Shown here one piece after another: positions 2,541-56,584 of a stretch of 64,000 nt of DNA (the first letter of the stretch is position 1; every line of letters begins with the position of its first letter). Where the stretch lies: the UHGV virus genome UHGV-1332848; one strand, written 5' to 3'. The notes beneath the pieces are model-generated. The model saw only the letters and a program-made list of their open reading frames with translations. It was not told the DNA's origin and made no database searches. Source of the stretch: a virus. Position numbers and translations under genes: made by a program.

Positions 2541-5500
2541 TTAAAAACCAACAAACATCTTTGAAAATACTGTTAATTGTAATCTTCCTAATGTAGAGCT
2601 TGTTATTTTAATTTTATTAGCTTTTCCTATTGTTAAATAATTCTTTATATCAATAGTTATATCAGAATTTATTCCACTTCTAACCAATACATCATTTACA
2701 TAAAGAGAACAATTTGAAGGTTTCGAACCCAGATATATACCCTGAACCAAAGTGTGATTATGTGTTGTGTCTATTGTTAATGAGTGCCTGTGATCTGGGA
2801 TAACCACACTATGTTCATGTAGTGGGATTTCTATTTGGATGTCATGCCAGTGCTTTAGAGTTTCCCTAAATATGTAATGATAATGCCTTCCATAATAGTC
2901 TAAATTCTCGCTTGGAGAATCTATTGCATATGGAGTAGTTGTTGCAATATCTCTATCTGAATTATATTGCAGGTTTTGCGTTGATCTAGTATCATAGTAA
3001 TACCCCCCCGCACCACTTGTACCAGTATAACCACCTCCACTGGATGACGTTTGGCTGACAGAAGCCCCCCCGGAATTTAATGATTTCACTGTCGCTCTAA
3101 ATTCTTTAAAAGCTAAAGATATTGTTGTTTTTCTAATTTCGTAAACTCCCTCATCCACTATATGCTCAAATTCTAAAGGATTACTTGAATCCAAATCATT
3201 TGAATATATATATTGGTTTGTTTGTATTATACCATTTTCATCCAAAACTACTGAACGTCCAGTCTTATCATATAAAGTTAACCCAGCTTTTCTATTGCCA
3301 TTACCATCATCAAATAATCCTAATTTAACTCTAACTCTTTTAAATTCATCATATATAGTTAATCCATCACCAGTTATCTCAAAAGCGCCCGTATCAGATG
3401 TAGCTATTAGTTTTTCCCCAAATATTATTTCGCCCCATAAATTTTCAGCGAAAATACCATCTGGACTAATAGCAGTCTTACTGCTTGCAAATCCATCTGT
3501 TGATATACATATAAGTCCACTTCCAATATATAAGCATTTATTCATATCACTTTGGTCATATAAATAAATTCCAGCTTCACTAATGTCTATAAAATTACTA
3601 ATTCCGCGACCCCTGGCAATATATGCAGATAAATCCAAGCCATTCTTCAATACCTCACCAACAAAGTTATTACTTAACATAGCATCATCTATTATTGGTC
3701 TTAAACTATTTAATAAATTATTTGATGAATTAGCTTTTTTCCCTAAATCTGCTAAACTTTTCGCAACATTATATCTATGTGTTTTATTAGTAAAAATTAG
3801 ATTGCTTATTGTATTTGTCTTAGGCTCATATTCATAACCAATAAACCTAACTATATCCTCACCTAACTCTTCCTTTAATTCAGGTTCATCAAACTTAAAT
3901 AGACTACCTAACTCCAATATGTAATTCCAGCCACGTTTATTTTGAATTACTTTACATAAATTAACACAATTAATATCAAAATCAAGTTGAGGTTTAATCA
4001 TTTCCTCCAAAACCTTTTTAGAAGCATTTAATAATGAAAAACTATTACTATAATAATCATCTTCATATACCCCAAATTGTTCTATATCATTTAATTCATC
4101 TAAATCATTATCAGTAAATATTTTACCCTGATTATCCACAACAACTTTTCTATCAATAGATGAGCTTATAGCCATTAACTCATTATTTAAGTTTTCTATA
4201 TTATGAGTATAGCTTAATCTTAAAGCTAAACATTGGTTCAATCTCGATTCTAGTCCATCAATTTCGCCCTTTATTCGAGCTTGGTTAGTTGTATCATTTT
4301 TAGACATATAATCTGCCAATATACTCTTTAAATCTTTTACCCTTAATTGTAGAGATTGCACTTCACTATCAATCCTTACTTGCTTTTGTTTCTCTGTTAT
4401 TACATTATTTTTTATTCCCAACCATTCCTGTTGTTTAGTGGTTAGTAGCGTTTCATATCTTTTTAAAGCTAACTGTAGTTCATCTGACATATTTCCAAGC
4501 CTTATATATTCACTATAATTTCTGACTATATCATCCCCATAAATATTTTCAGAAACAATGCTTAAACCATTTTTCCCCATAACTTTTAATCCAGTTACAT
4601 AGTCACTATTTTCAGTAACATTAATATCTATAATTGCATTATCATAAGTTAATATATACGGCTTCTCTTCTCCTAGGTTATCTCTATGTACTACGCTTAC
4701 TGTTTTATTATAACTATCAAATAAAAATACACTTTTAAAATTATCTTGTAAACTTCTTAACGCTTCATACCAATCCATATCAAGATTTTCTATATTTATA
4801 TATTTTACATTCTCAGTTTCTATAATATTACCCGTTTCCCAAGTCAGTCTTATGTTTTCACAACTAAAAGTTTTATTAATAATATTTGTAAAAACCGCTA
4901 TTCTTTCAACTCTAGTATTATCTGTTAAGGTGAATACATATTTAATGCCATATCTATTACCTACATCACTATGATGATAAGCTTGTACCTTCTTTATGTT
5001 AGTATATAATGCATCAGTTAAAGTATTATAAATAGTAGGAGTATCAATTAACAATTTACCATTATCATATGTCTTAAAATTACTATACTCAAAAGATATA
5101 TATAAAGGTCTATTTTCATCTATTGTAGTCGTTATATCTTTCTCAAATAACAATTCACCTTCCGTAACATTAGTTGGCTTGTTATAATTCTTAAACAAAT
5201 CTACATTAATCTTTTCAGTAGTAGACATTAGTTCGGTTCTTGATTTTGGATCTACATAATCTACGCCCCAACCAGTTTCTCTTGCAAATTTATCTAACAC
5301 TCCCTCAGCTATATGCACATCGTCTTTTTTTAACTGGATAACCTTGCCTTCAAAGCTAGTCCTTTTTTTCTTTAATGTATATTCAAACGACATAGCCTTA
5401 AAGGTTTTAGAGCCATTGTTCTTACTTATACTTTTACTCGGTTGTATTAATACAAATCTTTCTTTCTTTTCAATACCATCCACAACAGTAGTAACTATAA

Positions 5501-9500: not shown

Positions 9501-11734
9501 TTAGTCATACCATCAGCAAACTTGTTAAAAGCACCAGATATAACTCTACCTATACTCATTTGAGTAGCTTTAGCAAGATTGTCTATTTTTAAAGACATTG
9601 ATCCGACTATGGGAATTCCCTTGGAAATCCCCATATACATCTCTTTATTAAAAAGAACTAATGCGGTTGTAGCAACCCCTATTGTAGCAGGTAATGCTCC
9701 AAACGTATTAGCCATTCCACCGAATACTTCTAGTGAGGTTGTACCTAAATCCACAACGTTTTTTATAGTGTCCGAATTAATTGCATTAACCCACACAGAC
9801 TTCAATGTTTCAGAAAACTGATTCATTTTTCCCTCTATTGAGTCCATGAACCTCTGTTGTTCGTTATAAGCTGAACCAGAGCTTTCCAGTGCACTATTAT
9901 AAGCTTCGATACCCTCTTGCATATTTTTCATAGTTCCCGAGAAGACATTCCCCTGTCTCTGACCAGCTATAACATATTGCAAGTATGCTCTTTGCCCATC
10001 GGTCAATTTAGGATATACCTGTGCAAGTTCAGTCATTTGTTCATAAGTTGATTTAAAAGTATTGTCATCAACCATTATGTCAACCATTTGTCCAGCAGAA
10101 GCAGTTAGTTGTTTTATTTCATCTCTTAATTTAGAAACTGGAACAGATGTTTCGTCTATCTCTGTTTTCATTCCACGTAATCTCATAGCGATTGTCTTGA
10201 GTGCTGTTCCTGTGACATCAGCATCTTGTATTGAAGCGTTTCCAGCAACAAATATTCCAACAGCTTGTTCATAACTGTTTCCAGCCTCATAAAGTGCATT
10301 ACCCATTTTTTGCAATCCGTCAGCTACATCCTTGGTAGAACTTGAAAATTTATTTCCAGTATTATTAGCAACATCAATTATTCTAGTAATATCTTCTAAT
10401 GTGTTTAAATCAAAACCCTTGCTTATAGTAATAAGTGCCTTGGAAGCCTCGTCAATTGACTGGAAATCTCCTACATTTTTAAAAATTGTCGCTTGAGACG
10501 CTCTTTTAGATGCCTCATCAATAGCATATCCTAATTTTGAATAATATTCAGTTGCTTTAATAATATTTTCCGTACTTGTACCCACTTCTTTAGCCATATT
10601 ATTAGCAACAGATGTAAACATATCTAACTGTTCTTGTGTAGCCTTAGCCACCTTTGCTAAGTCCCTCATAGCAGTATCTAGCGAAATTATATCATTTATT
10701 CCTTTTCTTACTTCCGCTATCCCATTGTAAATAATGCTTCCACCAAAGGCATACATTCCCATTCTCTTAAATAAATTAGAAAATGAGGATTCATATTTAA
10801 CTAATTCGTTAGTTTGAATCCTCATTTGACTTATTGTTGAATTTATTCTATTTTTTTCAGCAGTACCTAGTAAATTATTTTGATTTTTCAAACTCTCTAT
10901 GTTAGATATTTGTCTAGATATTTCATCATTTAACCGTTTCTGCTCTGTGGGTTTACCTCCACCTTTGTTATTAACAGCTTGCTGATATATCTTTAATTTT
11001 GCTATTGTTTTATCCAAATAATCATTCTGCTTTAATAAATCTTGATTAAATTTATTTATATTGCCAGTTTCAATTTTAGACTTAGCTATAGCATATTTGT
11101 CTTCAAGTATAGACCTTTCTTTTAATAAATTATTATATAAGGTTTCATCAGCTAAGTTGGATTTACTAACACTACTTACACTTTCTTTGCTTATTTGTTG
11201 AGTATAATTCAATTGTTCTTGTAATACTTTTGCATATTCACCATCAGCAGTTAGTAACTTTGTTTTTAAATCATACTCAACTTTTTGTAATTGAACTATT
11301 TCTGAATAAGCGTTTTTCTTATTCTTGTCTACATCTCCAATAATACTAATATCTGTATTGCCATTGGTTAGATTCTTAACCGTTCTAACAGTTTCCTTTA
11401 ACTGATTATTTATATCAGTTACAACTTTAACTTCCCCATCTGACATTAATTGAATTTTATATTTAGACATTCCTTGAATTTCTCTTAGTGTTTTCGCTAA
11501 TTTTTCTAGCGATTTTTCAGATGAGAGCCCGTCAATATCAAGTTTAGAACCACTTAGAGTTTTAATTTTTTTATTTATCTTATCAATATTTTTATCAAAA
11601 TTCATAAAATCTACATTTGTAATTTTTAAGTTTATTTGCTTAGAAACACTATCTAATATTCCTTGTGCTTCTTTCTTTAATTGATCAATAGAGTCGAACT
11701 GAATGCCAGAAGATACCATTAATCGTTTAGCCAT
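6569..11734 (-). CDS. Tail tape measure protein
   Basis: 1721 aa with extensive coiled coil, a central block of hydrophobic TM-like helices (GALPATIGVATTALVLF...) and Gly/Ala-rich segments. Largest gene, preceded by the chaperone pair. Confidence 0.8.
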   Translation of the reverse strand: MAKRLMVSSGIQFDSIDQLKKEAQGILDSVSKQINLKITNVDFMNFDKNIDKINKKIKTLSGSKLDIDGLSSEKSLEKLAKTLREIQGMSKYKIQLMSDGEVKVVTDINNQLKETVRTVKNLTNGNTDISIIGDVDKNKKNAYSEIVQLQKVEYDLKTKLLTADGEYAKVLQEQLNYTQQISKESVSSVSKSNLADETLYNNLLKERSILEDKYAIAKSKIETGNINKFNQDLLKQNDYLDKTIAKLKIYQQAVNNKGGGKPTEQKRLNDEISRQISNIESLKNQNNLLGTAEKNRINSTISQMRIQTNELVKYESSFSNLFKRMGMYAFGGSIIYNGIAEVRKGINDIISLDTAMRDLAKVAKATQEQLDMFTSVANNMAKEVGTSTENIIKATEYYSKLGYAIDEASKRASQATIFKNVGDFQSIDEASKALITISKGFDLNTLEDITRIIDVANNTGNKFSSSTKDVADGLQKMGNALYEAGNSYEQAVGIFVAGNASIQDADVTGTALKTIAMRLRGMKTEIDETSVPVSKLRDEIKQLTASAGQMVDIMVDDNTFKSTYEQMTELAQVYPKLTDGQRAYLQYVIAGQRQGNVFSGTMKNMQEGIEAYNSALESSGSAYNEQQRFMDSIEGKMNQFSETLKSVWVNAINSDTIKNVVDLGTTSLEVFGGMANTFGALPATIGVATTALVLFNKEMYMGISKGIPIVGSMSLKIDNLAKATQMSIGRVISGAFNKFADGMTNASAKASVLSAKNTALAVSFKAVEVASALATATMTLGLSFAITGIITGVTKLIDKLIVTKEEMKEMNAESTAFITDSGKAITQAQKLLDEKTKLEQQITNTSNLSQRKDLESQLVEIEKQLASVLPESASGFSLQGDAISQNNGLIEEQIRLKKEQMEIEALGFIETNRGLTNELNALEQKKKQYEEMKLAMIKGEEYTKQVSYTERGKTTTGTYSQKVTQSDLDKLNQEIQDTTLKASQAQVHIKWLLDNGYKSSQLTQMGFDTSAVNNYINSVNKATEATKENTKAKQDNVDAEVGGFAEVSIEQATQNYGKAVEEVEKLDTLLQKINKEQQLTPDIVAELAKNYSDLGGNITDINAVQEYLNNKIQDQVAIQQEAYQVMIGNDQKYYAEKIKNSSEAQNAFDKFASQFVDVNSESYDFDLDNFATLNEAKAGFITKLSEPLSDFLANLLGGSAKTYRDDLANARSWAEMKSKILAKLDEQISKAESRLNSFAEKSVESATSIDALNNEKFATKALQQIKTIQTEKAKIDTAFNEFYASFNTSSPTFGRGSSLIGDKGSKDKAEKEIANMEKLSDRYRDVNNALKELDNELDRNKILMENTSDEEKLKYLEKELELIKKQEMAYKNKNKEQEKELSELKNSLVANGFNADGSGRITNANSRLDALTNWANSLSGDARENAQKNAKAIAESLERYNDLLLNQIPEVSNAILDLKNTTIDTQKEIVELIKKQKDSYIENINKETDALKKAIQKRKDLRNKEWDEDDYRDELKKRQDSLIDLESQLQDAMRMADGELIANIKKQIESAQQDINSFIRDNERDKANERYDEELERIEENAQNKIDEINSKLTDEEILKMVQNGVRDLSSVLDSVGNANKSITSTFTNVGDIIQNDWLGNLDKFITELKGISTVDLNLNSNVNRNMSNANSKQQIGDINLEYKLIVKGNMNEDVLPKVEKMIKEAKYETMREIGELAGTR

Positions 11735-12793: not shown

Positions 12794-13234
12794 TTATTTA
12801 TTTTTAGTTTCTTCAACCATATCAAAAACAACACCAGTACTATCTATAATAAGCAATGGAATCTCTTTATCTGTTTTTGAACTTTCTTTATCAATTATTA
12901 CTATTTCATACCCAACGTCTTTTATATTGCTTGAATCTGCAAGGTTTTTAACATCATTATATAAACTCAAAGCATTTTCCCTTAATATAACCCATTGTTT
13001 ATACACACTGTCTTTTGAAACAGCATCAATTATCGTGTCTTTACTTAAATAATCTGTAATTCTTATGACATTTCTATCTTCTCTATATTCAACATCATAC
13101 TCCACCATATCTTGTAACACTTTTACAAATTCCGGTATTTTTGTTTTACTACCCGAAGTCGAACAACCTATCATAAATACAAAAGTCAAAATAAAGTTAA
13201 TAAAAATTATTGCATACTTCTTTTGATTCCACAT
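12794..13234 (-). CDS. Lipoprotein (signal peptide with lipobox MIGC)
   Basis: 146 aa. N-terminus MWNQKKYAIIFINFILTFVFMIGCSTSG is a classic Gram-positive lipoprotein signal. Embedded in the tail module. Confidence 0.5.
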   Translation of the reverse strand: MWNQKKYAIIFINFILTFVFMIGCSTSGSKTKIPEFVKVLQDMVEYDVEYREDRNVIRITDYLSKDTIIDAVSKDSVYKQWVILRENALSLYNDVKNLADSSNIKDVGYEIVIIDKESSKTDKEIPLLIIDSTGVVFDMVEETKNK

Positions 13235-28153: not shown

Positions 28154-28999
28154 TTAACTAGCTAAATTTACACCATCTTTATAATGCTTAATCACATCAG
28201 AAATATCAATATTCTCTTCATTGCACATAGAAATAATAGTAGCTATTGCATTTGGAATTTCACTATCATCCAACATATCAAGTGTTTTTGGTTTAGTTCG
28301 CTTTCCAGTTTTATTTAAATAATTCGTAATTCTACTGTTTATATTTATTGAATGGCTATATAATAAATTCTTTTTATATTCAGTCCAAGCACTACCAAAA
28401 TCACCTTTAGCATATCTTCTAACTAATGCATTTATTAGGTTTCTATTAGCCCAACTAAACACTTCTCCACTCAATAATCTTTTTTCAATCGATATAGTTT
28501 CATTTTCTAAAAGCAACTTTTCTTTTTCTTCTTCGGCTTCAACAAGCATCAATAGAGCCTCTTTAAAATTGGTCGGAAGTTTATATTGCTGTTGTTGGAT
28601 TATTTCTCTCATCCTGAAATATTCTTCTATTATAGAATCCATAACTTCCCACTTCTTATCGTTTGAATTATCCATCATTGCAACCAGCTTAGTATATCCT
28701 CTTTCAGATAGTAAAAATATATTTTTTGTTCTATTGTTAGTAATTAATCCATTTTCTTTAGCAAAATCTCTTAAACCTTCTGAAGGTTTTAGAAAATCCT
28801 TCAAATCATTATTATTAAATCTGTTGATATTATTGTTTATTAATGTATTTATTTTATCTAGCCTTAAATCATGTTGTAGTGCAATATCACTAGCTAAAAT
28901 ACATTTTTGATTTTCACCAAAACCACCTTCGACAACTTTTACACTTTTGCCATTAATTTCTTTTGTACCATTAATTTTGATTAACTCCATATATCTCAT
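28154..28999 (-). CDS. Phage antirepressor-like protein (Bro-N/KilA-N-type N-terminus)
   Basis: 281 aa. N-terminus INGKSVKVVEGGFGENQKCILASDIALQHDL resembles antirepressor DNA-binding domains. Confidence 0.4.
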   Translation of the reverse strand: MRYMELIKINGTKEINGKSVKVVEGGFGENQKCILASDIALQHDLRLDKINTLINNNINRFNNNDLKDFLKPSEGLRDFAKENGLITNNRTKNIFLLSERGYTKLVAMMDNSNDKKWEVMDSIIEEYFRMREIIQQQQYKLPTNFKEALLMLVEAEEEKEKLLLENETISIEKRLLSGEVFSWANRNLINALVRRYAKGDFGSAWTEYKKNLLYSHSININSRITNYLNKTGKRTKPKTLDMLDDSEIPNAIATIISMCNEENIDISDVIKHYKDGVNLAS

Positions 29000-35747: not shown

Positions 35748-36020
35748 TATAGTGGTATTGAGTTCTAATCTAGTAATCAAATAGTTTGCTAAACTTTATA
35801 TTTGTAGTACTGAATTATAAAACTATACTCTATACTGAAAATATAAGCTACTTAATCACCATAATTATATCAAGTAACCGTGGTATTGAATGATAACTTT
35901 ATAGTTTTTTGGTGATTAATTAGCTTATCTTTAATAGAAAATAATACGTTTTGTGATTCTTTTTTTATATTCTTGTATACCATTTGCTCACTTTTCGAGA
36001 ATGTGGTATTCAATTCTAAA
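35748..36020. repeat. Dispersed iteron copies (GTGGTATTGA core) downstream of rep
   Basis: Copies at about 35751, 35878 and 36001, plus an internal copy at 36270; same core as the 22-bp array at 37234-37345. Confidence 0.5.
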
Positions 36021-37215
36021 TAATAACCTCAAATTCAGATACGTCGTATTTACCATATGGTAAACCTGCAAAAGTATAAGTTTTTATATTTTCAACAGCC
36101 CCTATACTATCTTTGTAGTCCACATATCTTAATAATGCTGAAATATATGACATTGTATCTAATCTGCAATATTTAGTTATGTCCTCATAATCTATACCAA
36201 TCTCTCTTAATCTAGCCACAATTTCCTCGTCTGTTGTATATTTGTTAAGTCCTTTGAGTTTAAGTCTAACTGTGGTATTGAATACTAAATTTATGCCATC
36301 GTTAGAATCTATATTATATGCTTCAAAGAATTTAACTGTCTTTAATTCTTCTAAAGCTTCTTTCAACCTTCTTATCCAATAGTAAGAATCTTGTTTAGTT
36401 TGTATTTGTATTCCCAAATAATCATATAATGTTTGTAATTTTATATATTTTTCATTACCATGTGACCACTGCGTTAATATTAATAGCATTTTTTTAGCTA
36501 TATTATTTTTCAATAACTTATATTTTTTATAATCATATAGCTTAAAGTAATTGCTAACTAAATTACTAAAAAAGAACTCATCTATTTGGACACTTTGAAA
36601 ATCCCTAATATCTTCATGATGTAGAAGTTCTCTACCTTCTAGTTTTCTAGTTTCAACTGAATAACTTTTGTACTTCGATATTATCCTACTACTCTCTTCT
36701 CCGTTGAAACTACTTACATAAGCACCTTCTTTTTGATTTCTGATTGCCTGTTTGCTATATATAGTTGTTTCAACCAAACATTTTATTGACTTTTCAAGTC
36801 TTTCTTTTGTTGCCTTTCCAAAACCCTTCAAACCCATCTCTTTTGCAAGTTCTCTATAGGTAAAATTAATAACATTACTCATATTTTCAACTTTATTATC
36901 ACTCGATACCACAATTTTATTATCCATATTTTTTGACTGTATTTTAAATAGAGCCATTAGTACATCCATTTCATATATAGTTGGGCATCCTAAGTCAGCA
37001 GATCCTTTTACTGTTAGTTCAACTTCTACGCCATTTCTAATCCAACGCCTAACCAGCATCTTTTCTTTTTTTCTTTTAAGAGATATAAAAGGCAATGTCA
37101 TTAAGTTGGATTCATTAAACGACTGATGAGGTTTTATAGTTATAACTTTTCCACAATCTGAATCATTGATATTATTAGCTTCAGCTATGTTTTCCACATT
37201 ATCCACACCTTTCAA
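36016..37215 (-). CDS. Replication initiator protein (plasmid-type Rep, RepA_N-like)
   Basis: 399 aa; flanked on both sides by iterons; N-terminal region with LMTLPFISLKRKKEK typical of Firmicutes RepA_N initiators. Confidence 0.5.
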   Translation of the reverse strand: MKGVDNVENIAEANNINDSDCGKVITIKPHQSFNESNLMTLPFISLKRKKEKMLVRRWIRNGVEVELTVKGSADLGCPTIYEMDVLMALFKIQSKNMDNKIVVSSDNKVENMSNVINFTYRELAKEMGLKGFGKATKERLEKSIKCLVETTIYSKQAIRNQKEGAYVSSFNGEESSRIISKYKSYSVETRKLEGRELLHHEDIRDFQSVQIDEFFFSNLVSNYFKLYDYKKYKLLKNNIAKKMLLILTQWSHGNEKYIKLQTLYDYLGIQIQTKQDSYYWIRRLKEALEELKTVKFFEAYNIDSNDGINLVFNTTVRLKLKGLNKYTTDEEIVARLREIGIDYEDITKYCRLDTMSYISALLRYVDYKDSIGAVENIKTYTFAGLPYGKYDVSEFEVII

Positions 37216-37233
37216 TTAGACTTTAAATATCAC

Positions 37234-37345
37234 CGTGGTATTGAGTGTTAATCATCGTGGTATTGAATGATAATGACTGTGGTATTGAATGTTATCCACA
37301 GTGGTATTGAATACAAACAATTGTGGTATTGAGTGTTAAAAAAAT
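37234..37345. repeat. Iteron array, five direct repeats at exact 22-bp spacing (putative theta origin / Rep operator)
   Basis: cCGTGGTATTGAGTG / tCGTGGTATTGAATG / cTGTGGTATTGAATG / cAGTGGTATTGAATA / tTGTGGTATTGAGTG starting at 37236, 37258, 37280, 37302, 37324; immediately upstream of the rep start codon. Confidence 0.75.
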
Positions 37346-37519
37346 TATGTTAAGCCTTATTATGACTTAATTTGACGATTTGTGTTACTACGTATATAGT
37401 TTCTATAGTTATATATTACATATGTATATAATTACAGGTAAGAGATACTATATATAAAACACTCAACACCATTTCTATTCAATTTATATTTAATTATAGC
37501 ATATTTTTACAAATTATGT

Positions 37520-38254
37520 TTAAATGTTCAATAATTTTCTAAACCAATTCTTTTTATTTTTTAAAGACTCTATTTCTTCTTTGGTTACATAACTAGTTTT
37601 AAAAGTTTCTTTGATTTCATTTAGTGAAGACTTGAAGTCATTTTGACTTTCCTCTAAGTTATTGCTAAAATTATCTAATAATTCCAAATCCCTATTTTTC
37701 TGATTAGTCTCAATATCATCCAAAAGTTTCTTTGTAGAAGATTCATGTCTTTCTAATTTAGAATCGAGGGATTCATTAAACTCATCTAATGCGTAATTTA
37801 GTTTTTGATTTTGGGCTTCAGCGTAAATTTCCATAAAGGTTTTTAAGCTATCTACTATTTGATTCCTCATAATTTCTAATTTTTCATCTTGTTTTTGAGT
37901 TATTTGAATAGCTAATGCTTCGAATCCCAATGGATCATTAGGATTAATTAAACCACTATTGTATTCACCAAAACTAAAACCACGTTTAGATATTATCTCC
38001 CTTATTTGTGTATAAGAATATTTCTTATCAACCAACTCCTTGATGAATTTCAAATTATCTATATCTTTTTTTGTATATTTCCTTCTTCCGTTTTCTCTCT
38101 TCAACTCTAATAAATCACCAAATGACTCATCTTTAGCCCAATTTCTAATTGTAGTTACTGGTTCATTTAGTATCTCCGCTACTTGTACTGCTGTATAATA
38201 AATGTCATCTTTTAATTCGGTATATGAAACATCGGTAAAATTTAAATTTTCCAT
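37520..38254 (-). CDS. tubY: TubY-like regulator (MerR-type HTH plus coiled coil plus Lys-rich amphipathic tail)
   Basis: 244 aa. N-terminal MerR-like HTH (YTAVQVAEILNEPVTTIRNWAKD), long coiled coil, C-terminus KNKKNWFRKLLNI. Divergent from tubRZ across the AT-rich centromere. Confidence 0.4.
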   Translation of the reverse strand: MENLNFTDVSYTELKDDIYYTAVQVAEILNEPVTTIRNWAKDESFGDLLELKRENGRRKYTKKDIDNLKFIKELVDKKYSYTQIREIISKRGFSFGEYNSGLINPNDPLGFEALAIQITQKQDEKLEIMRNQIVDSLKTFMEIYAEAQNQKLNYALDEFNESLDSKLERHESSTKKLLDDIETNQKNRDLELLDNFSNNLEESQNDFKSSLNEIKETFKTSYVTKEEIESLKNKKNWFRKLLNI

Positions 38255-38269
38255 AAGAATTTCCTCCTA

Positions 38270-38720
38270 ATCAAAATGGAATAAATTATATATATTATAA
38301 TTTTATATGTAAATTAGAAGAATTACAATAGTTTAATAATTTAATTATATTACTTAAATTTAGTTGAAAAGTTTTGTTATATAAATTTAGTTAAGTTTAT
38401 AATATTAATTTGTTTAGTTTAGTTTAATCTAATATATTTTAATTATACTTTAATAATTGTTTAATTACTATTTAATAATATATTAATGATAATTTAGTAT
38501 AAGTTTAATAATATTTTAATAATTAAATATAAATAAAGTTAATATTAATATATATTGAAAAAAATATTAAACTATAATGTAACATTTATTAAATGGTTAT
38601 AATATAATTATGAATATAAGAATAAATACTTATTAATATAATATTGTTTTATATTGACATTATATTTAATTTATAGTATTTTATTAATTATGAAGTATAG
38701 TTATAGCAACTAAAGTGAGG
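38270..38720. promoter_or_regulatory. Extremely AT-rich repeat region: putative tubC centromere and divergent promoters
   Basis: About 450 bp, almost devoid of G/C, with reiterated TTTAGTT and TTTAATAAT(T) units between the divergent tubY-like and tubR genes. Confidence 0.4.
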
Positions 38721-38728
38721 TGTAAAAA

Positions 38729-39061
38729 GTGGAATATGGTTCTATGTTTAATAAGAATGACTACGTTATACTTGAAATGTTAATTGCAGAAGAATGCAAT
38801 TCGCCATACAAATCATTAACAAAACAATTCATAATAAAACAGTCTGGATTTTCACATGTTAAAGTACAACAAGTTTTAAAATCTTTTTTGCTTGTTGGAT
38901 TTGTAAAAGAAGGTACAAAAGATGGTAATAACAAAACATATTATTATACCGACAAGGGGAAAGAACACTATATGCAGGTTTTTGAGTATTCAAATGAAGA
39001 TATAGAGATTTTAGTAGAAAATAATAAAGAGAATGAAAATAATAATCAGGAGGAAAGTTAA
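38729..39061 (+). CDS. tubR: TubR-like centromere-binding protein (winged HTH)
   Basis: 110 aa, directly upstream of tubZ and translationally coupled to it (TAAATG); small acidic HTH protein. Confidence 0.5.
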   Translation: MEYGSMFNKNDYVILEMLIAEECNSPYKSLTKQFIIKQSGFSHVKVQQVLKSFLLVGFVKEGTKDGNNKTYYYTDKGKEHYMQVFEYSNEDIEILVENNKENENNNQEES

Positions 39062-40165
39062 ATGTTAAAAGATTCTTGTGTATTTATAGGTGTAGGACAA
39101 TGTGGAGGAAATATAGTTAGACAATTAGAATTAAAAGGTGGGTATTCATGCTTTTATATTAACTCATCAACTGAAGATTTAGAAACTATAGGTACTGATT
39201 ATGATAAGCAACATCATATTTCAGAAACAAAAGGAATGGCTAAAGATCAAAAATTAGCTAAAGAAATAATAAACGCTGAAGAGAGAAATTATATAATTGC
39301 AGAAAAGATATATAAGAGATATGCCAATGCTACGATATATACATTTGTATTCTCAACATCTGGGGGAACAGGTGGTGGAATGTCAAGTTCTATAATGAAA
39401 GCTATGAAAGAATGGTATCCAGATAAAATAGTAAATGCCATTGCTGTTAAACCACATTCAAGCGAAGATATGATTATGCAATATAATTCATTGGAATGTC
39501 TAAAGGAATTAAAAGAGTTAAATAAAGATAACGTAGTAACTAATTTACAAATTGTAGACAATAATAAAAGAGATTTTAAGGATAAAATGAGAATAAATTC
39601 AGAAGTTGCATCTTTATTAGACGGAATAATGGCTTTTAATTCAATAACATCAGAAGGAAATTTAGATGAACAAGAATTAGAAGTAATATATTCAACAAAG
39701 GGCGTTTCTTTTATATGTGAGTTTGGTGGTACTGATTTTGTAAATGAATTAGATAAAGCAGAGCAAAAAATGGTATATGCACAATATTTAAAAAATGGTA
39801 CTGTGCATGGTCTTATTTTAAATAAAGATTGTAATACAGAAATAAATAGAGCTATAATAAAGGATGCATTTGGATATCCTTTAAAAACAATGGATACTGT
39901 ATGGGATGATGAAAGTAATATTGTTTTTGTAGCTGGAACTGAATTTAATGATGGAATCTTAGAAGAATTAAAAAAATCATATATGGAGATTAAAAAGAAA
40001 AGAGAAGAAGTTAACGATAAAGCTAAAGAAAAGAGTGAATCTGATATAAGTATAGATTTTAGTGAATTAGAAACAGCTTCTACAGTGATAAATACAAAAG
40101 TTCAAAGACCAGATAGAAGACGTAGAGTAGGCGTAAATGGTGAAATGAGCAGATATAGAAAATAA
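39062..40165 (+). CDS. tubZ: TubZ tubulin/FtsZ-like GTPase (plasmid/phage partition)
   Basis: 367 aa. FIGVGQCGGNIVRQ (nucleotide-binding T1 loop) and FSTSGGTGGGMSS (tubulin signature GGGTG[ST]G) at residues 99-108. Confidence 0.75.
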   Translation: MLKDSCVFIGVGQCGGNIVRQLELKGGYSCFYINSSTEDLETIGTDYDKQHHISETKGMAKDQKLAKEIINAEERNYIIAEKIYKRYANATIYTFVFSTSGGTGGGMSSSIMKAMKEWYPDKIVNAIAVKPHSSEDMIMQYNSLECLKELKELNKDNVVTNLQIVDNNKRDFKDKMRINSEVASLLDGIMAFNSITSEGNLDEQELEVIYSTKGVSFICEFGGTDFVNELDKAEQKMVYAQYLKNGTVHGLILNKDCNTEINRAIIKDAFGYPLKTMDTVWDDESNIVFVAGTEFNDGILEELKKSYMEIKKKREEVNDKAKEKSESDISIDFSELETASTVINTKVQRPDRRRRVGVNGEMSRYRK

Positions 40166-40171
40166 TTTCAA

Positions 40172-40203
40172 AGGCTAGGGTATAACAACCTTAGCCTATT
40201 TTA
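40172..40203. terminator. Bidirectional stem-loop terminator between tubZ and the convergent nuclease gene
   Basis: AGGCTAGGG-tataacaa-CCTTAGCCT (9-bp stem with one G-U) followed by ATTTTA. Confidence 0.4.
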
Positions 40204-40732
40204 AATATCCTAAATATCTCAACACATTGTCAGCATCACATATCTTACACATATCTACAAATCCGTTGATATCAACTAATTTAATATCAACTTTACTTTT
40301 CTCTGCCGTATCAATAGCATCATTTGTATAGCCACTTGTAGTTAAAAACAAACACTTATTAACTCCATCTGAGACCGCACTCCCAATCAATTTTAAAACC
40401 AATGGAGCAGTCACCAGATTTGAACTAGCATACCTTTTAATTTCCACATACATTTTGCCATCCTTAGTACTTAATATTAAATCCTTGCCACCATCCCTTG
40501 TTTTTGGTGTTTGTTCCGCTTTAAACCCCATTTCTTTAAATATATACTCAACAAAATCCTCAAATTCTGATCCATTCATTTTATTTACTGAAGAAATAAC
40601 TTTATCTATATAGACATTGATTGGATATTCTCTTTGCTCTTTTTTCTTGGTTTTTACTTTGTTTATTCCAAGCCCTACATAATAAAGGATTATAGACAAT
40701 ATACATATAGTAAAAAACTGTTTGTTATCCAT
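40196..40732 (-). CDS. Membrane-anchored Mrr-like restriction endonuclease domain protein (PD-(D/E)xK)
   Basis: 178 aa. N-terminal TM helix FFTICILSIILYYVGLGI. Mrr_cat-like core FEDFVEYIFKEMGF...RDGGKDLIL...YVEIKRY (D...EIK). Confidence 0.5.
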   Translation of the reverse strand: MDNKQFFTICILSIILYYVGLGINKVKTKKKEQREYPINVYIDKVISSVNKMNGSEFEDFVEYIFKEMGFKAEQTPKTRDGGKDLILSTKDGKMYVEIKRYASSNLVTAPLVLKLIGSAVSDGVNKCLFLTTSGYTNDAIDTAEKSKVDIKLVDINGFVDMCKICDADNVLRYLGYLK

Positions 40733-40956
40733 AAAATAATCCTCCTGAAATTTTAAAAATATATTTTAACATATATGTTCACATATATACTGTTAATACA
40801 TAGTATGTACTATAAATCAAAATAATATTCAAAAGGGAGCAATGAAAAAAAATGAAAAATAATTTAGAGATATTAAAATGTTTATGGTTATTACTAATAA
40901 ATGGTTTAAAAGATGTCAATACAGAATACAGACATCTAGGATAGGAGAGTGTGTTA

Positions 40957-41264
40957 TGTTAGCAAGAGAAAGAACATTGTCAAAAAAAGAAGTTAGTAAT
41001 ATTTTATCAGAAATAAATCAAAAAAAGATTATAAAAACTACCTCAATTGGAATTGTGGGACTAGGAGCTTTTAAGATTGTATATAAATATTCAAATGCAG
41101 TAGATAATTTTATATTTAGTAATTTTAAAGGGTTTTTATTAAATAGCAATTTCTCATTACTTGGAATAGCAATACCTAATTGGTTTTCAATAGCGTTATT
41201 ATTAATGGTTGTAGCTTGTTCATCTGTAGACATATACACAAAGATTATAAAGAAAAGTAGGTGA
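40957..41264 (+). CDS. Small membrane protein (two TM helices)
   Basis: Start chosen at MLARERT after RBS AGGAGAG (track ORF starts at 40878); hydrophobic helices GIVGLGAF and SIALLLMVVACS. Confidence 0.35.
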
Positions 41265-41268
41265 GAGT

Positions 41269-42924
41269 ATGATTTTAGAAAGTTTATTATGTGGAACAAC
41301 TGGTTATGCATTATATAGAATATTTGCATATGATAAACATGAGGAAAGAAGGCTTAAAAGTAAAGTGAAAAGAAACTGGAAAGTTTTAATGGATAGTATG
41401 GGAAACTCTGCTGAGAACAAGATACATCAAGAATATGAAATTTTAAATATATTCCCAAAGCATTACGGATTTGACATGGTTGTATCTATTCCACCAGCAA
41501 AGAAATTCTCTGATGTAGTAGATTTATTGCCTCTAATAGAGCATTTTTACCGTGCTAATGTAATGCTGAATATGTCCGAAAATAAGAATGCTGCTTATGT
41601 AAGAGTACATTTTTCAAATTTTGAAATTTCCCCTAAAGACAAACTTAGATTTGATTGGTTTAAAACATTTTATAACATGTCAGGCTGTATAACTAAGTCG
41701 GGTGAAACTTTGAATATAGATAAAATAAGTGAGATAAAATCACACGACAATGAATTAGTTGGCTATAAAATAATCTCTAAAATCCCACTAGGATTAAACT
41801 ACGATAAAATAAAAGATTCTTATGATACTATAACTAAAACAATGGGAAAGTGTTTCTTTAATTTCAACTACAAGGAAATGGTACTAGAAACATCTATAAT
41901 TCATAAAAGGATTGAAGATAATGTTAAGTTTACGCCATATAAAGTTAAACCTTGGGAATTATATATATCTATGGGGTATGACTGGAATCCTATTATACTA
42001 GATTATAGTATGGTTGCAAACTCATTAATAGGAGGTACTCAAGGTAGCGGTAAAACAAATGCTATATTTTCTGCTTTTATAAATCTTTGCAATCAATGCA
42101 ATGGTGATTACTATGAAGATGGATTTGACTTAATGGTATCTAATCTAGGCGAAAAGAATGATCTTAGAGTTTTTAGAGATACAAAGCAATGTAAATACTA
42201 TGCTAATAGTCAAGCTGAAGTATTATCTATGCTTAAGTATCTAAAAAAGGAAATGAATAGAAGGAATAAATTATTTGCTGAACAAGAATCATTTTGTTTC
42301 AATATTCACCAATACAATAAATTGATAAAGGACAAATCGAAGCAATTGAAAGTAATACACTTATTAGGTGATGAAATAGCAGACTTAATGAGTGAAGATA
42401 AAGATGATGGTAAAAAAGAAATTCAGGATATGTTGTGGGATATTATCAGGAAGTCAAGAAGTAGCGGTATATATATTACTGTTGCCACTCAACGTGGTAG
42501 TTTAGCAAATTTAAGTAGTGAAATTAAAGGACAACTAGCTAATAAGATATGCTTTAGTCAACCTAACACAGCATCCGCACTTACAATTATGTCTGGTGAT
42601 GATGTAGCAAAACGTGTTATGTCTTTAGAAAAAAGCAGAGAATGTTTAGTTGATTATGCAGAAGGAATTAAAGTAGCTAAGACGCTATACCTAGATGAAA
42701 GAATGATGGAAAAGTTATTAAAGAATTCTATAACAAAAGAAAATAATAAATTAAATCTTAACCTAGATGGTGATATAGTCGTTTCAGAACTCCCAAAAAC
42801 GATAGAAAACTCTGAAAATAATGATAAAAATACTAAAGAACATAAAGAAACTTCGAAAAAATCTAAAAAAAATAGATTTACTAATCTTATTGAGAATAAA
42901 AGCAAAAAGGGTGAAGAAGAATAA
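41269..42924 (+). CDS. FtsK/SpoIIIE-family DNA translocase ATPase
   Basis: 551 aa. N-terminal TM. Walker A GGTQGSGKTN, Walker B IHLLGDEIADL, and the ATQR motif in GIYITVATQRGS. Confidence 0.7.
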   Translation: MILESLLCGTTGYALYRIFAYDKHEERRLKSKVKRNWKVLMDSMGNSAENKIHQEYEILNIFPKHYGFDMVVSIPPAKKFSDVVDLLPLIEHFYRANVMLNMSENKNAAYVRVHFSNFEISPKDKLRFDWFKTFYNMSGCITKSGETLNIDKISEIKSHDNELVGYKIISKIPLGLNYDKIKDSYDTITKTMGKCFFNFNYKEMVLETSIIHKRIEDNVKFTPYKVKPWELYISMGYDWNPIILDYSMVANSLIGGTQGSGKTNAIFSAFINLCNQCNGDYYEDGFDLMVSNLGEKNDLRVFRDTKQCKYYANSQAEVLSMLKYLKKEMNRRNKLFAEQESFCFNIHQYNKLIKDKSKQLKVIHLLGDEIADLMSEDKDDGKKEIQDMLWDIIRKSRSSGIYITVATQRGSLANLSSEIKGQLANKICFSQPNTASALTIMSGDDVAKRVMSLEKSRECLVDYAEGIKVAKTLYLDERMMEKLLKNSITKENNKLNLNLDGDIVVSELPKTIENSENNDKNTKEHKETSKKSKKNRFTNLIENKSKKGEEE

Positions 42925-43523
42925 TGAGCATTAGATTTACAAAGAAAGTTAGGGACATTTTGGAGCATATAAACACCTACGGATTTATTACTAACAAACA
43001 ATGTGCTTTGATTTACTTTAAGGGAGCTAAACAACCATATATACAAGCACAGACAAAAATGAAGTTATTGTATGATAATAATATAGTAAAACGGACTGAA
43101 TACAAGTTAAATAGAGAGTATGTATATAGCATAAATAAAGAAGAAATAAGCGACCACAGAATGTATTTAATGAATTTATATGCATATCTATATAGTAAAT
43201 TTGAAATCATCTATTTTAAAGTTGAAGAATCTTGGCAATGCAAAAAGAGAAATGATGCACATATAATCATTAAAAAGAATAATGGTGATATGGTTGGCAT
43301 TCTATGTGAGATAGATTTATACCACAAAACAGGACAAGATAAGTTGGATAAGATGTATGAGAGTGGGGAAGTACACCAATGGTATAAGATTAATTATGAT
43401 GCCGACGGTTATTATCCATCTGTATTAATAGTTAATAGTTCTGGTAAGACGACAATTAAATCTAACCAATATGAAGTAGTTGCTGTTGATTTTGATTTTA
43501 ATGGGCTAGATAGTATCTTATAG
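42924..43523 (+). CDS. Replication-relaxation family (Replic_Relax-like) winged-helix protein
   Basis: 199 aa. N-terminus VRDILEHINTYGFITNKQCALIYF resembles Replic_Relax. ATGA overlap with the FtsK-like gene. Confidence 0.4.
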   Translation: MSIRFTKKVRDILEHINTYGFITNKQCALIYFKGAKQPYIQAQTKMKLLYDNNIVKRTEYKLNREYVYSINKEEISDHRMYLMNLYAYLYSKFEIIYFKVEESWQCKKRNDAHIIIKKNNGDMVGILCEIDLYHKTGQDKLDKMYESGEVHQWYKINYDADGYYPSVLIVNSSGKTTIKSNQYEVVAVDFDFNGLDSIL

Positions 43524-55618: not shown

Positions 55619-56584
55619 TTGAAAGGAGTAATAATGGATACTGAAATAAGAGATAGATTCTTGATGAAGTTTGATAAACAGAATACCGTAAAAACCTATA
55701 AGGGTAATATAGATATCTTTTATGAATTTGTATTAGCTAGGAAAACTTTCGATACTGACAAAGATTTATTAGGTACTATAGGGTTTAATGATGTTGAAGA
55801 TTACTTTTATGACATGAAAAAAAATAATAAATACAAAAAAAGTACAATGAATTTAAAAATAGAAGTGTTGAATGAGTTCTTTGACTTTGCGATAAGAAGA
55901 AGAGTCATGGAATTCAATCTAACTGATACAATAGATAAATTTTGTAAAAGTGATATTAAAAAAGAAAAAAAAGAGAAGTATGTTCCCACTGTAGATGAAA
56001 TAAAAATGATATTAAATGCGACATATGAAAAAAAAATAGATGCAAGATGTCAAAGTTTTAATAACGCTAGAAACAGGTTTTTAATATCTTTATTATGTAC
56101 TACGGGTTTGAGGATAGAGGAAGCTTTGGGAATAAAAATGAATGATGTAGATCAACTGAGTAATGGTTTGTATATGATTGACGTGGAAGGAATAAGGGTA
56201 AAAAATGGTATAAACAAAAGAGTCCCTATTACAAAAGGAGTATTGAAGTATTTCTATGAATATGAAAAAGAAAGAGATTTAAGAAATAAAAAATTCGACA
56301 CAGATTTATTATTTTTCAGTATTAATGGAAAGAAACTAACTGGAAACAAAACAAATGAGTTGATAAGAGAACTATGTGCAAGAGCAGGAATAGAAGAAAA
56401 TATAACAAACCATTGTTTTAGACATTTTTTAACTACATACCTAAGAAGCAAAGGCTATGATAATGGTTTGGTGTATAAAATTATGGGTTGGAGTGAAAGA
56501 GGAATTGATACAGAATATGGCAAGGAAGCAAATAATAAGGAATATGACATATTAAAGTTAAAGATGTGCGATGTTTTGGGGTAG
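55619..56584 (+). CDS. Tyrosine recombinase (integrase / Xer-like)
   Basis: Active-site residues visible: R in TTGLRIEEALG, H-x-x-R in NHCFRHFLTT, probable Tyr in LVYKIMGWS. Preceded by the motif. Confidence 0.6.
   Translation: MKGVIMDTEIRDRFLMKFDKQNTVKTYKGNIDIFYEFVLARKTFDTDKDLLGTIGFNDVEDYFYDMKKNNKYKKSTMNLKIEVLNEFFDFAIRRRVMEFNLTDTIDKFCKSDIKKEKKEKYVPTVDEIKMILNATYEKKIDARCQSFNNARNRFLISLLCTTGLRIEEALGIKMNDVDQLSNGLYMIDVEGIRVKNGINKRVPITKGVLKYFYEYEKERDLRNKKFDTDLLFFSINGKKLTGNKTNELIRELCARAGIEENITNHCFRHFLTTYLRSKGYDNGLVYKIMGWSERGIDTEYGKEANNKEYDILKLKMCDVLG

Follow-up and report, generated by a model that had tools for sequence, protein, structure and literature searches.

Is a tailed phage whose genome carries a tubulin-like gene next to a replication initiator and iterons kept in its host as a plasmid, and does that gene belong to the machinery that would segregate it? 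The question is raised by a 64,000-nt stretch of the virus genome UHGV-1332848 (hereafter the window, meaning the whole of this stretch), in which a gene for a 367-amino-acid (aa) tubulin-like protein (tubZ) is preceded by a gene for a 110-aa protein (tubR) and by a strongly A/T-rich spacer, with a divergent gene for a 244-aa protein (tubY) on the far side. We consider it very likely that the locus is a type III (tubulin-based) partition cassette, arranged tubY ← tubC → tubR-tubZ, on a ~130-kb circular phage-plasmid of a gut Clostridium. All sequence-testable defining features of such a system are present, and TubR, TubZ and TubY were found together in every complete locus examined, their identities dropping roughly in step; the function of the cassette would follow from homology to characterised systems. 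It is an additional member of the known partition systems of the type found in phage c-st and will not surprise a specialist, since c-st and TubZ-bearing plasmid prophages have already been published (PMC8026635, PMC6009700). Public records label the cassette proteins only 'hypothetical protein' or 'helix-turn-helix domain-containing protein', and NCBIfam has no model for them: TubZ drew no match, TubR and TubY nothing but noise below threshold. A megablast search of positions 36000–41000 against phage and plasmid collections gave no match, and the element is thus without a close sequenced relative in the collections searched; its relatives came from protein-level searches only.

The three open reading frames (ORFs) lie where the preliminary description of this DNA had placed them (Table 1), and the motifs it read in the 367-aa protein, GVGQCGGN and SGGTGGG, occupy residues 10–17 and 100–106; a T7 loop absent from that description, GNLDEQE (NxDxxE), is found at residues 199–205. 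The suggested check against tubulin and TubZ profiles favoured the assignment: the protein matches Pfam Tubulin well above cut-off (1e-15, 58.9 bits against 33), and in a sequence search of the PDB its best solved relatives were the c-st TubZ entries 4xcq/3v3t (E ~3e-33, 118 bits), the next match being CetZ at 33 bits. Identity to c-st TubZ (CST189) is ~26% (phmmer E 3e-33). An AlphaFold model built with 38 homologues (predicted local distance difference test score, pLDDT, 86; disordered tail from about residue 327) superposed best on 3v3t, with a target-normalised template-modelling (TM) score of 0.92 at 2.1 Å, followed by CetZ and Bacillus TubZ, and the Bt and Bc TubZ structures ranked above most FtsZ entries. 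Residues G12, Q13, G101, G102, T103, N167, D202 and E205, which serve GTP binding and T7 catalysis, are invariant in 38 of 38 family members, leading us to expect an active, polymerisation-dependent GTPase. The C-terminal tail is basic, with nine Lys or Arg among the last 25 residues and a conserved RR-x-R-x-VGV...RYR motif. FtsZ proper was considered and rejected, as the best matches are to TubZ, no division cluster surrounds the gene, and the gene is operonic with tubR. NCBI assigns an identical TubZ, named hypothetical, to 'Clostridium sp.', and more remote members of the family occur on contigs of up to 116–222 kb.

TubR had been proposed from its position only, and direct homology now backs the proposal. 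The 110-aa protein has just two matches in the PDB, both named TubR (6tey, 2.8e-10; 4asn, 0.007); the sequence of 6tey matches c-st CST190, to which our protein is 42% identical, and phrog_17403 is matched at 4e-13. Its start is ambiguous, being either GTG 38729, 5 nt past a GAGGTG, or ATG 38744, the start chosen by other gene callers and the one that agrees with the c-st N-terminus. At its other end, the stop codon TAA (39059–39061) abuts the ATG of tubZ at 39062 with a gap of 0 nt. The translational coupling of tubR and tubZ that had been described therefore stands for this allele; it does not extend to six of eight near-identical relatives, which stop 12 nt earlier. The difference is a polymorphism at 39047–39049 (locus position 9986–9988), which reads CAG in the window and in locus L009 and TAG in L003–L005, L007, L008 and L010; the TAG allele drops the last four residues (QEES) and leaves a 12-nt gap before tubZ. 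The predicted basic, disordered tail of TubZ and the acidic tail of TubR lend indirect support to the idea that TubR may bind tubC cooperatively and that the complex may engage the TubZ tail.

The 244-aa protein matches Pfam MerR_1 (7e-13) and is homologous both to c-st TubY, CST188 (28% identity, 4e-19, aligned over 220 residues), and to the MerR gene beside tubRZ on the Clostridium botulinum plasmid NZ_CP022401 (34% identity, 1e-42), all three sharing a terminal motif NKK-x-(W/F)(F/W)-x-(K/R)-L. Its AlphaFold model has a winged helix-turn-helix (HTH), one predicted long helix and short tail helices, and the helical hydrophobic moment of the protein peaks in the tail segment LKNKKNWFRKL. HTH, long helix and amphipathic tail together correspond to the architecture described for TubY, in which a MerR HTH is followed by a coiled coil and a Lys-rich amphipathic tail (PMC7762940). 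A sequence search of the PDB returned only chance matches for this protein, with the C-terminal domain of Bacillus cereus TubY (PMC7762940) not among them. The earlier identification as a TubY of the c-st kind thus holds for homology to CST188, the MerR HTH, the helix and the tail, but not for the layout, as divergent upstream placement is that of Bacillus and not of c-st (PMC7762940).

A tubulin encoded by a phage could instead act in the lytic cycle and, like the PhuZ of jumbo phages, position capsids or replicating phage DNA. The element is indeed a phage, PhuZ structures are among the fold matches of TubZ (rank 28) and the tubulin PhuZ family of PHROG is matched at 3.6e-11, although far more weakly than phrog_17961 (3e-33), a family without functional annotation, or than c-st TubZ in the PDB search. 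No PhuZ system is known to include TubR, tubC or TubY, whereas here all three are present and co-conserved. The PhuZ class comprises stand-alone tubulins of lytic jumbo phages; this tubZ comes with its partners on a ~130-kb genome with lysogeny-type anti-repressor genes, beside a Rep gene and iterons and not in a lytic replication module. The basic tail of TubZ also resembles those of plasmid TubZ proteins (PMC7762940), and we regard a PhuZ-like lytic role as very unlikely.

A partition cassette also needs a centromere, for which the spacer between tubY and tubR (38255–38728) is the candidate. The A/T-rich repeat region described upstream of tubR is real: the spacer has 11.6% G+C over 474 bp, holds no ORF of at least 40 aa and contains 15 copies of a TTTA[AG]T core against 4.2 expected. 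Seven of these copies (38438, 38449, 38460, 38471, 38493, 38504 and 38515) share one 11-bp phase; among 2000 dinucleotide-preserving shuffles of the spacer the in-phase count was at most 3, and none of the 2000 reached 5. Autocorrelation z-scores of repeat block B (Table 1) are 4.5, 3.4, 3.3 and 4.0 at lags 11, 22, 33 and 44, and in a comparison across loci the spacer as a whole scored 3.8 (lag 11) and 5.1 (lag 22). The tubC of c-st, mapped biochemically upstream of tubR, has TTGAC iterons 'spaced by 6 bp' (PMC6009700), that is, a period of 11 bp; in the c-st sequence (L001) TTGAC stands at 3594, 3605 and 3616, with z-scores of 5.6–6.5 at lags 11 and 22. Phasing at 11 bp was found in all six tubC-position spacers (those of the window, c-st, the C. 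botulinum Su0604 plasmid, L014, L016 and L017), with core sequences that differ among the last four, and nine other A/T-rich non-coding control regions of the window had no peaks at lags 11, 22, 33 or 44. Across seven related contigs the spacer is 98.5–100% identical. Shared phasing, differing cores and conservation support the spacer as a candidate tubC and suggest that TubR and tubC co-evolve in specificity.

The element on which the cassette sits combines phage structural and packaging genes with plasmid replication and partition genes, all on one contig and within the same 64-kb window. Tail fibre, minor tail, tape-measure, portal and terminase proteins are encoded at 185–24753, and between 36 and 61 kb lie the Rep gene, iterons, tubZRY, Xer-like and MrpR-like recombinases and a PemK/MazF protein. 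The Xer-like recombinase matches XerD and XerA profiles at 1e-31, which is nevertheless below the NCBIfam cut-offs, and the 200-aa PemK/MazF-domain protein is about twice the usual size of such toxins; the recombinases and the MazF-domain protein are probably multimer-resolution and addiction functions of a plasmid state. Two anti-repressor genes of the Ant/Rha type lie at 28154–28999 (minus strand) and 62973–63743 (plus strand), and c-st has a putative anti-repressor, CST184, near its partition locus; they suggest lysogeny under anti-repressor control, as in other plasmid prophages.

The preliminary description had also asked whether related elements assemble as separate circular or linear contigs, and at least one assembles as a circle. 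An element with 96% identity was assembled twice, as k141_182725 (133,464 bp, tubZ at 75,046) and as JAEXLD010000118 k127_1938060 (133,450 bp, tubZ at 12,795), the two being identical over the 21,101 bases compared. Subtraction of the assembly k, 141 and 127 respectively, leaves 133,323 bp in both cases, with break points 62 kb apart, which indicates a cyclic assembly graph without chromosomal flanks. Over the 21,104 bases compared, the window itself shows no difference from the ENA metagenome contig NODE_1_length_130278 (130,278 bp), of which it represents positions 66,224–130,223. That contig stops 55 nt past the end of the window in the middle of an ORF (L013 10789–11083), which we take to be DNA methyltransferase-like from its motif EPSAGKGDL. 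With its end inside a gene and with 130,278 − 55 = 66,223 + 64,000, it is probably circular too, with an overlap of k = 55. Two further contigs, of 128,354 and 130,654 bp, have tubZ at other offsets, and none of the five contigs of 128–133 kb shows a chromosomal flank. Integration as the only state, which would have spoken against the phage-plasmid proposal, accordingly finds no counterpart in these contigs, which bear an identical TubZ at varying positions. Circular assembly, phage genes, Rep and iterons, partition and recombinase genes and a plasmid-borne homologue together make the phage-plasmid reading well supported, and the element would be maintained as a plasmid at low copy number.

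Several observations weigh against this picture of a partition cassette on a phage-plasmid. Tracts of A/T phased at 11 bp could be mere intrinsically curved promoter DNA, and the c-st iteron cores are not enriched in the spacer, where TTGAC occurs once and WTGAA four times. Circularly permuted or terminally redundant virion DNA also assembles as a circle, so that circularity alone is no proof of a plasmid prophage, and a 365-kb scaffold (L007) has this cassette in other surroundings. What we propose for TubR binding, TubZ polymerisation and plasmid stability in this element is inferred. The lack of enrichment of the c-st cores means that TubR specificity is not transferable from c-st, and c-st specificity was rejected for this TubR. 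The large scaffold (ena:ERZ28604968 scaffold_9, 364,966 bp, range 314921–336024) encodes an identical TubZ in a near-identical cassette; its left flank differs, with HNH, small terminase and large terminase genes within 8 kb, which may reflect a different, larger element, integration of the cassette or an artefact of scaffolding.

Taken to its end, the curvature argument would make the spacer only a divergent promoter, serving a regulator pair and a cytoskeletal protein with no centromere function there. A/T tracts phased with the helical repeat are a classic cause of curvature, promoter-like sites lie on both strands, and DNA of 12% G+C is rich in palindromes and repeats; but the phasing recurs in every one of the tubC-position regions, the mapped c-st tubC included, and in none of the A/T-rich controls (PMC6009700), and the spacer is conserved as strongly as the coding part of the cassette. 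As tubC overlaps the promoter in known systems, the two roles are not exclusive in any case, and we hold a promoter without centromere function to be highly improbable. The promoter candidates themselves (Table 1) are weak and tentative calls, since a scan of the spacer region gave 34 sites against 29 expected, a number not above that of shuffles in such A/T-rich DNA.

We give even less credence to an ordinary integrating prophage whose circles derive from induced virion DNA and whose cassette is no more than a dispensable or decaying passenger. In its favour, the element encodes two tyrosine recombinases, circular assembly fits permuted virion DNA, and the cassette is also found on the 365-kb scaffold. 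The five contigs of 128–133 kb have no chromosomal flank, however, and the recombinases resemble the Xer and MrpR proteins of multimer resolution and not classic integrases, even if the Xer matches are below the NCBIfam cut-offs. ARAGORN found no tRNA gene and Rfam no match in the window, which leaves no candidate for a tRNA-type attachment (att) site and no known RNA regulator; nor was any other att-like feature found there. Rep, iterons and the MazF toxin are present as well, and the catalytic residues and all four parts of the cassette are intact and near-identical across samples, which argues for selection and against a decaying passenger. A phage-plasmid partitioned by its own tubulin remains the reading that we prefer.

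Replication appears to be supplied next door to this cassette, where the five 22-bp iterons reported earlier were recovered (Table 1). The 399-aa putative initiator belongs to no Pfam or NCBIfam family and has a sole match, to phrog_23878 (6.6e-55). The iteron core GTGGTATTGARTR was matched 10 times in the window, where 0.44 would be expected; further copies lie downstream of and inside the rep gene at 35752–35764, 35880–35892, 36272–36284 and 36900–36912 (minus strand). Iterons on both sides of the rep gene recall the arrangement of origin and control iterons around P1 repA. Among relatives with an identical TubZ, the tubC-tubR-tubZ segment has 98.5–100% nucleotide identity and tubY 94–99.7% (94% in L004 and L007), whereas the Rep gene and iterons of L004, L005 and L007 have no similarity to those of the window. 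In the rep slot, L005 (6930–8460) encodes an initiator of the Rep3 family beside about four 22-bp iterons of another sequence; L004 (6872–8460) and L007 have a 386-aa protein, accompanied in L004 by about six 22-bp iterons unlike either of the other sets. Occupation of the same slot as the initiators of relatives supports the 399-aa protein as an initiator. The comparison shows three unrelated Rep-plus-iteron modules exchanged around a fixed partition module.

Table 1 Features of the partition cassette and its surroundings (positions in the window; residue numbers where stated)
Feature	Position	Strand	Remarks
Putative iteron-type replication initiator	36016..37215	-	399 aa; 393 aa if start 37197 (other gene callers); adjoins partition cassette
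Putative replication origin	37229..37338	+	Five tandem 22-bp iterons, core GTGGTATTGARTR; then A+T-rich stretch to 37519
tubY	37520..38254	-	244 aa; MerR-type winged HTH, residues 20-91; conserved linker GLINPNDPLGFEAL; long helix 108-221; amphipathic Lys/aromatic tail 231-244
tubC candidate and divergent promoters	38255..38728	.	474 bp, 11.6% G+C
tubY promoter candidate	38285..38313	-	TTTACA-17-TATAAT, 11/12 matches, 30 bp upstream of start; consensus match only
Repeat block A	38332..38429	+	TTTAATA/TTTAGTT cores at 27-bp spacing (38332, 38359, 38386, 38413); further copies 38418, 38423
Repeat block B	38438..38525	+	Eight consecutive 11-bp units, core TTTAAT(A/T)A; seven match TTTA[AG]T, 38482 degenerate
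tubRZ promoter candidate, sigma-70-like	38654..38682	+	TTGACA-17-TATTTT; consensus match only
tubR	38729..39061	+	110 aa; putative winged-helix centromere-binding protein; C-terminal helical extension and acidic tail; alternative start ATG 38744
tubZ	39062..40165	+	367 aa; tubulin/FtsZ-fold GTPase
tubZ motifs	39089-39112; 39359-39379; 39656-39676	+	T1 loop; T4 signature; T7 NxDxxE
Terminator-like hairpin	40172..40197	+	10 pairs, between convergent tubZ and mrr-like genes
Mrr_cat nuclease-domain protein	40196..40732	-	Hydrophobic N-terminal segment; Pfam Mrr_cat 6e-26
FtsK/SpoIIIE-like ATPase (551 aa) and overlapping 199-aa protein	41269..43523	+	Pfam FtsK_SpoIIIE 2e-11
Xer-like tyrosine recombinase	55619-56584		
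MrpR-like recombinase	58867-60018		
PemK/MazF protein	60176-60778		200 aa

Three genes beyond tubZ, encoding the Mrr-like, FtsK-like and 199-aa proteins, accompany tubRZ here, in c-st (L001 1–3236) and in the distant lineage L017 (9120–12095). The Mrr-like protein is 42% identical (3e-23) to c-st CST191, which adjoins tubC, and occurs in L017 too; the FtsK-like and 199-aa proteins have c-st homologues in CST193 and CST194 and relatives in L015 and L017. In L015 (1843–3848), another distant lineage, only the FtsK-like gene and one for a 197-aa protein were seen, the Mrr-like gene being absent. The family of the 199-aa protein has a faint Replic_Relax match in L017. The FtsK-like gene (41269–42924) is only ~84% identical in six relatives, between flanking genes at 93–100%, which indicates a divergent allele or a recombination patch in a conserved block. 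That the three proteins are accessory parts of type III segregation in spore-formers, with the cassette the core of a larger maintenance island, is an unlikely but consequential idea: if true, a plasmid-encoded translocase could secure the phage-plasmid in the forespore or move it clear of the closing septum, and the genes would not be an unrelated transfer or defence module.

How such a cassette might work can be proposed step by step by homology to the systems of c-st, pBtoxis and pBc10987, drawing on the description of c-st tubC and TubR (PMC6009700) and on the domains of TubY and the unloading model (PMC7762940). TubR would polymerise on the 11-bp-phased tubC repeats and bend the DNA into a segrosome, which probably overlaps and represses the tubRZ promoter. 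GTP-bound TubZ would form treadmilling filaments whose basic C-terminal tail engages TubR-tubC, so that sister replicons are pulled apart. Oligomeric TubY may bind the same intergenic region through its MerR HTH and activate tubRZ, while its amphipathic Lys/aromatic tail, at the membrane, may unload the segrosome and promote filament disassembly. Rep and the 22-bp iterons would supply replication, and the Xer/MrpR-like recombinases multimer resolution; together with partition, these functions would let the prophage persist outside the chromosome.

The finding does not overturn current understanding, and its use lies in annotation: the tubY-tubC-tubRZ signature can serve as an annotation rule for plasmid prophages in Clostridia. 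The c-st paradigm, in which a tubulin spindle keeps a tailed phage as a plasmid, would extend to an unrelated ~130-kb backbone found repeatedly in gut-associated Clostridium metagenomes. Across the family tubC is phased at 11 bp and its cores vary by lineage, a natural series in which the co-evolution of TubR and centromere specificity can be followed, and one partition cassette found with three Rep-plus-iteron modules illustrates that replication is swapped while partition is kept, with implications for incompatibility.

Set against known systems, the element resembles phage-plasmids of the P1 type (iteron RepA, ParAB-parS, Cre-lox) in having an iteron-controlled Rep with iterons flanking its gene, an active partition locus, a tyrosine recombinase for multimer resolution, an addiction toxin and a tailed-phage genome; in contrast to P1, the motor here would be a tubulin-like GTPase (type III) and not a ParA ATPase (type I), and there is no sequence relationship. 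Its nearest homologue in a finished genome is on the C. botulinum Su0604 plasmid NZ_CP022401.1 (210 kb, circular), where the genes are annotated as hypothetical or MerR family. The layout is the same, with a divergent MerR gene, a spacer, a small ORF and a tubulin, at identities of 40% for TubZ, 42% for TubR and 34% for TubY, and the spacer is likewise phased at 11 bp, but with the repeat core AAAGCATAAT; within the locus examined (~5 kb downstream of tubZ) the plasmid has no Mrr or FtsK homologue.

In sequence the closest characterised system is that of c-st, all three of whose proteins (CST189, CST190 and CST188; PDB 3v3t, 4xcq and 6tey) are homologous to those of this cassette. The two also share a ~0.5-kb, 11-bp-phased repeat region upstream of tubR, the TubY tail motif and the Mrr-like, FtsK-like and CST194-like neighbours, and both are large tailed Clostridium phages, c-st being kept as a plasmid (PMC8026635). 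They differ in the placement of tubY, which lies upstream and divergent here and, in c-st, downstream with the same direction of transcription; in the C-terminal helical extension and acidic tail of TubR, which c-st TubR is without (PMC6009700); in the TubZ tail, strongly basic here and acidic in c-st; and in the repeat cores, TTTAAT(A/T)A against TTGAC and WTGAA. The phage backbone of ~130 kb is unrelated to that of c-st, its portal being nearest to large Bacillus and Brevibacillus phages and to Bacillus and Clostridium plasmids.

Several of these departures from c-st are likenesses to the Bacillus systems of pBtoxis, pXO1/pBc10987, pBM400 and pBsph, where tubY likewise lies upstream of tubC and tubRZ, TubR is extended at its C-terminus, TubZ ends in a basic tail and TubY joins a MerR HTH to a coiled coil and a Lys-rich amphipathic tail (PMC7762940); the fold of TubZ also matches 2xka, 2xkb and 4ei7 at a TM score of ~0.7. 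Sequence similarity to these systems is marginal (E 0.007 for TubR against 4asn; 14–18% identity for TubZ in structural alignments), TubZ is shorter (~370 aa against ~380–415 residues in the solved Bacillus chains), and the carrier is a phage-plasmid as opposed to a virulence plasmid. With c-st-like sequences and a Bacillus-like TubR extension, TubZ tail and tubY placement, the system is c-st-like in sequence and intermediate in organisation.

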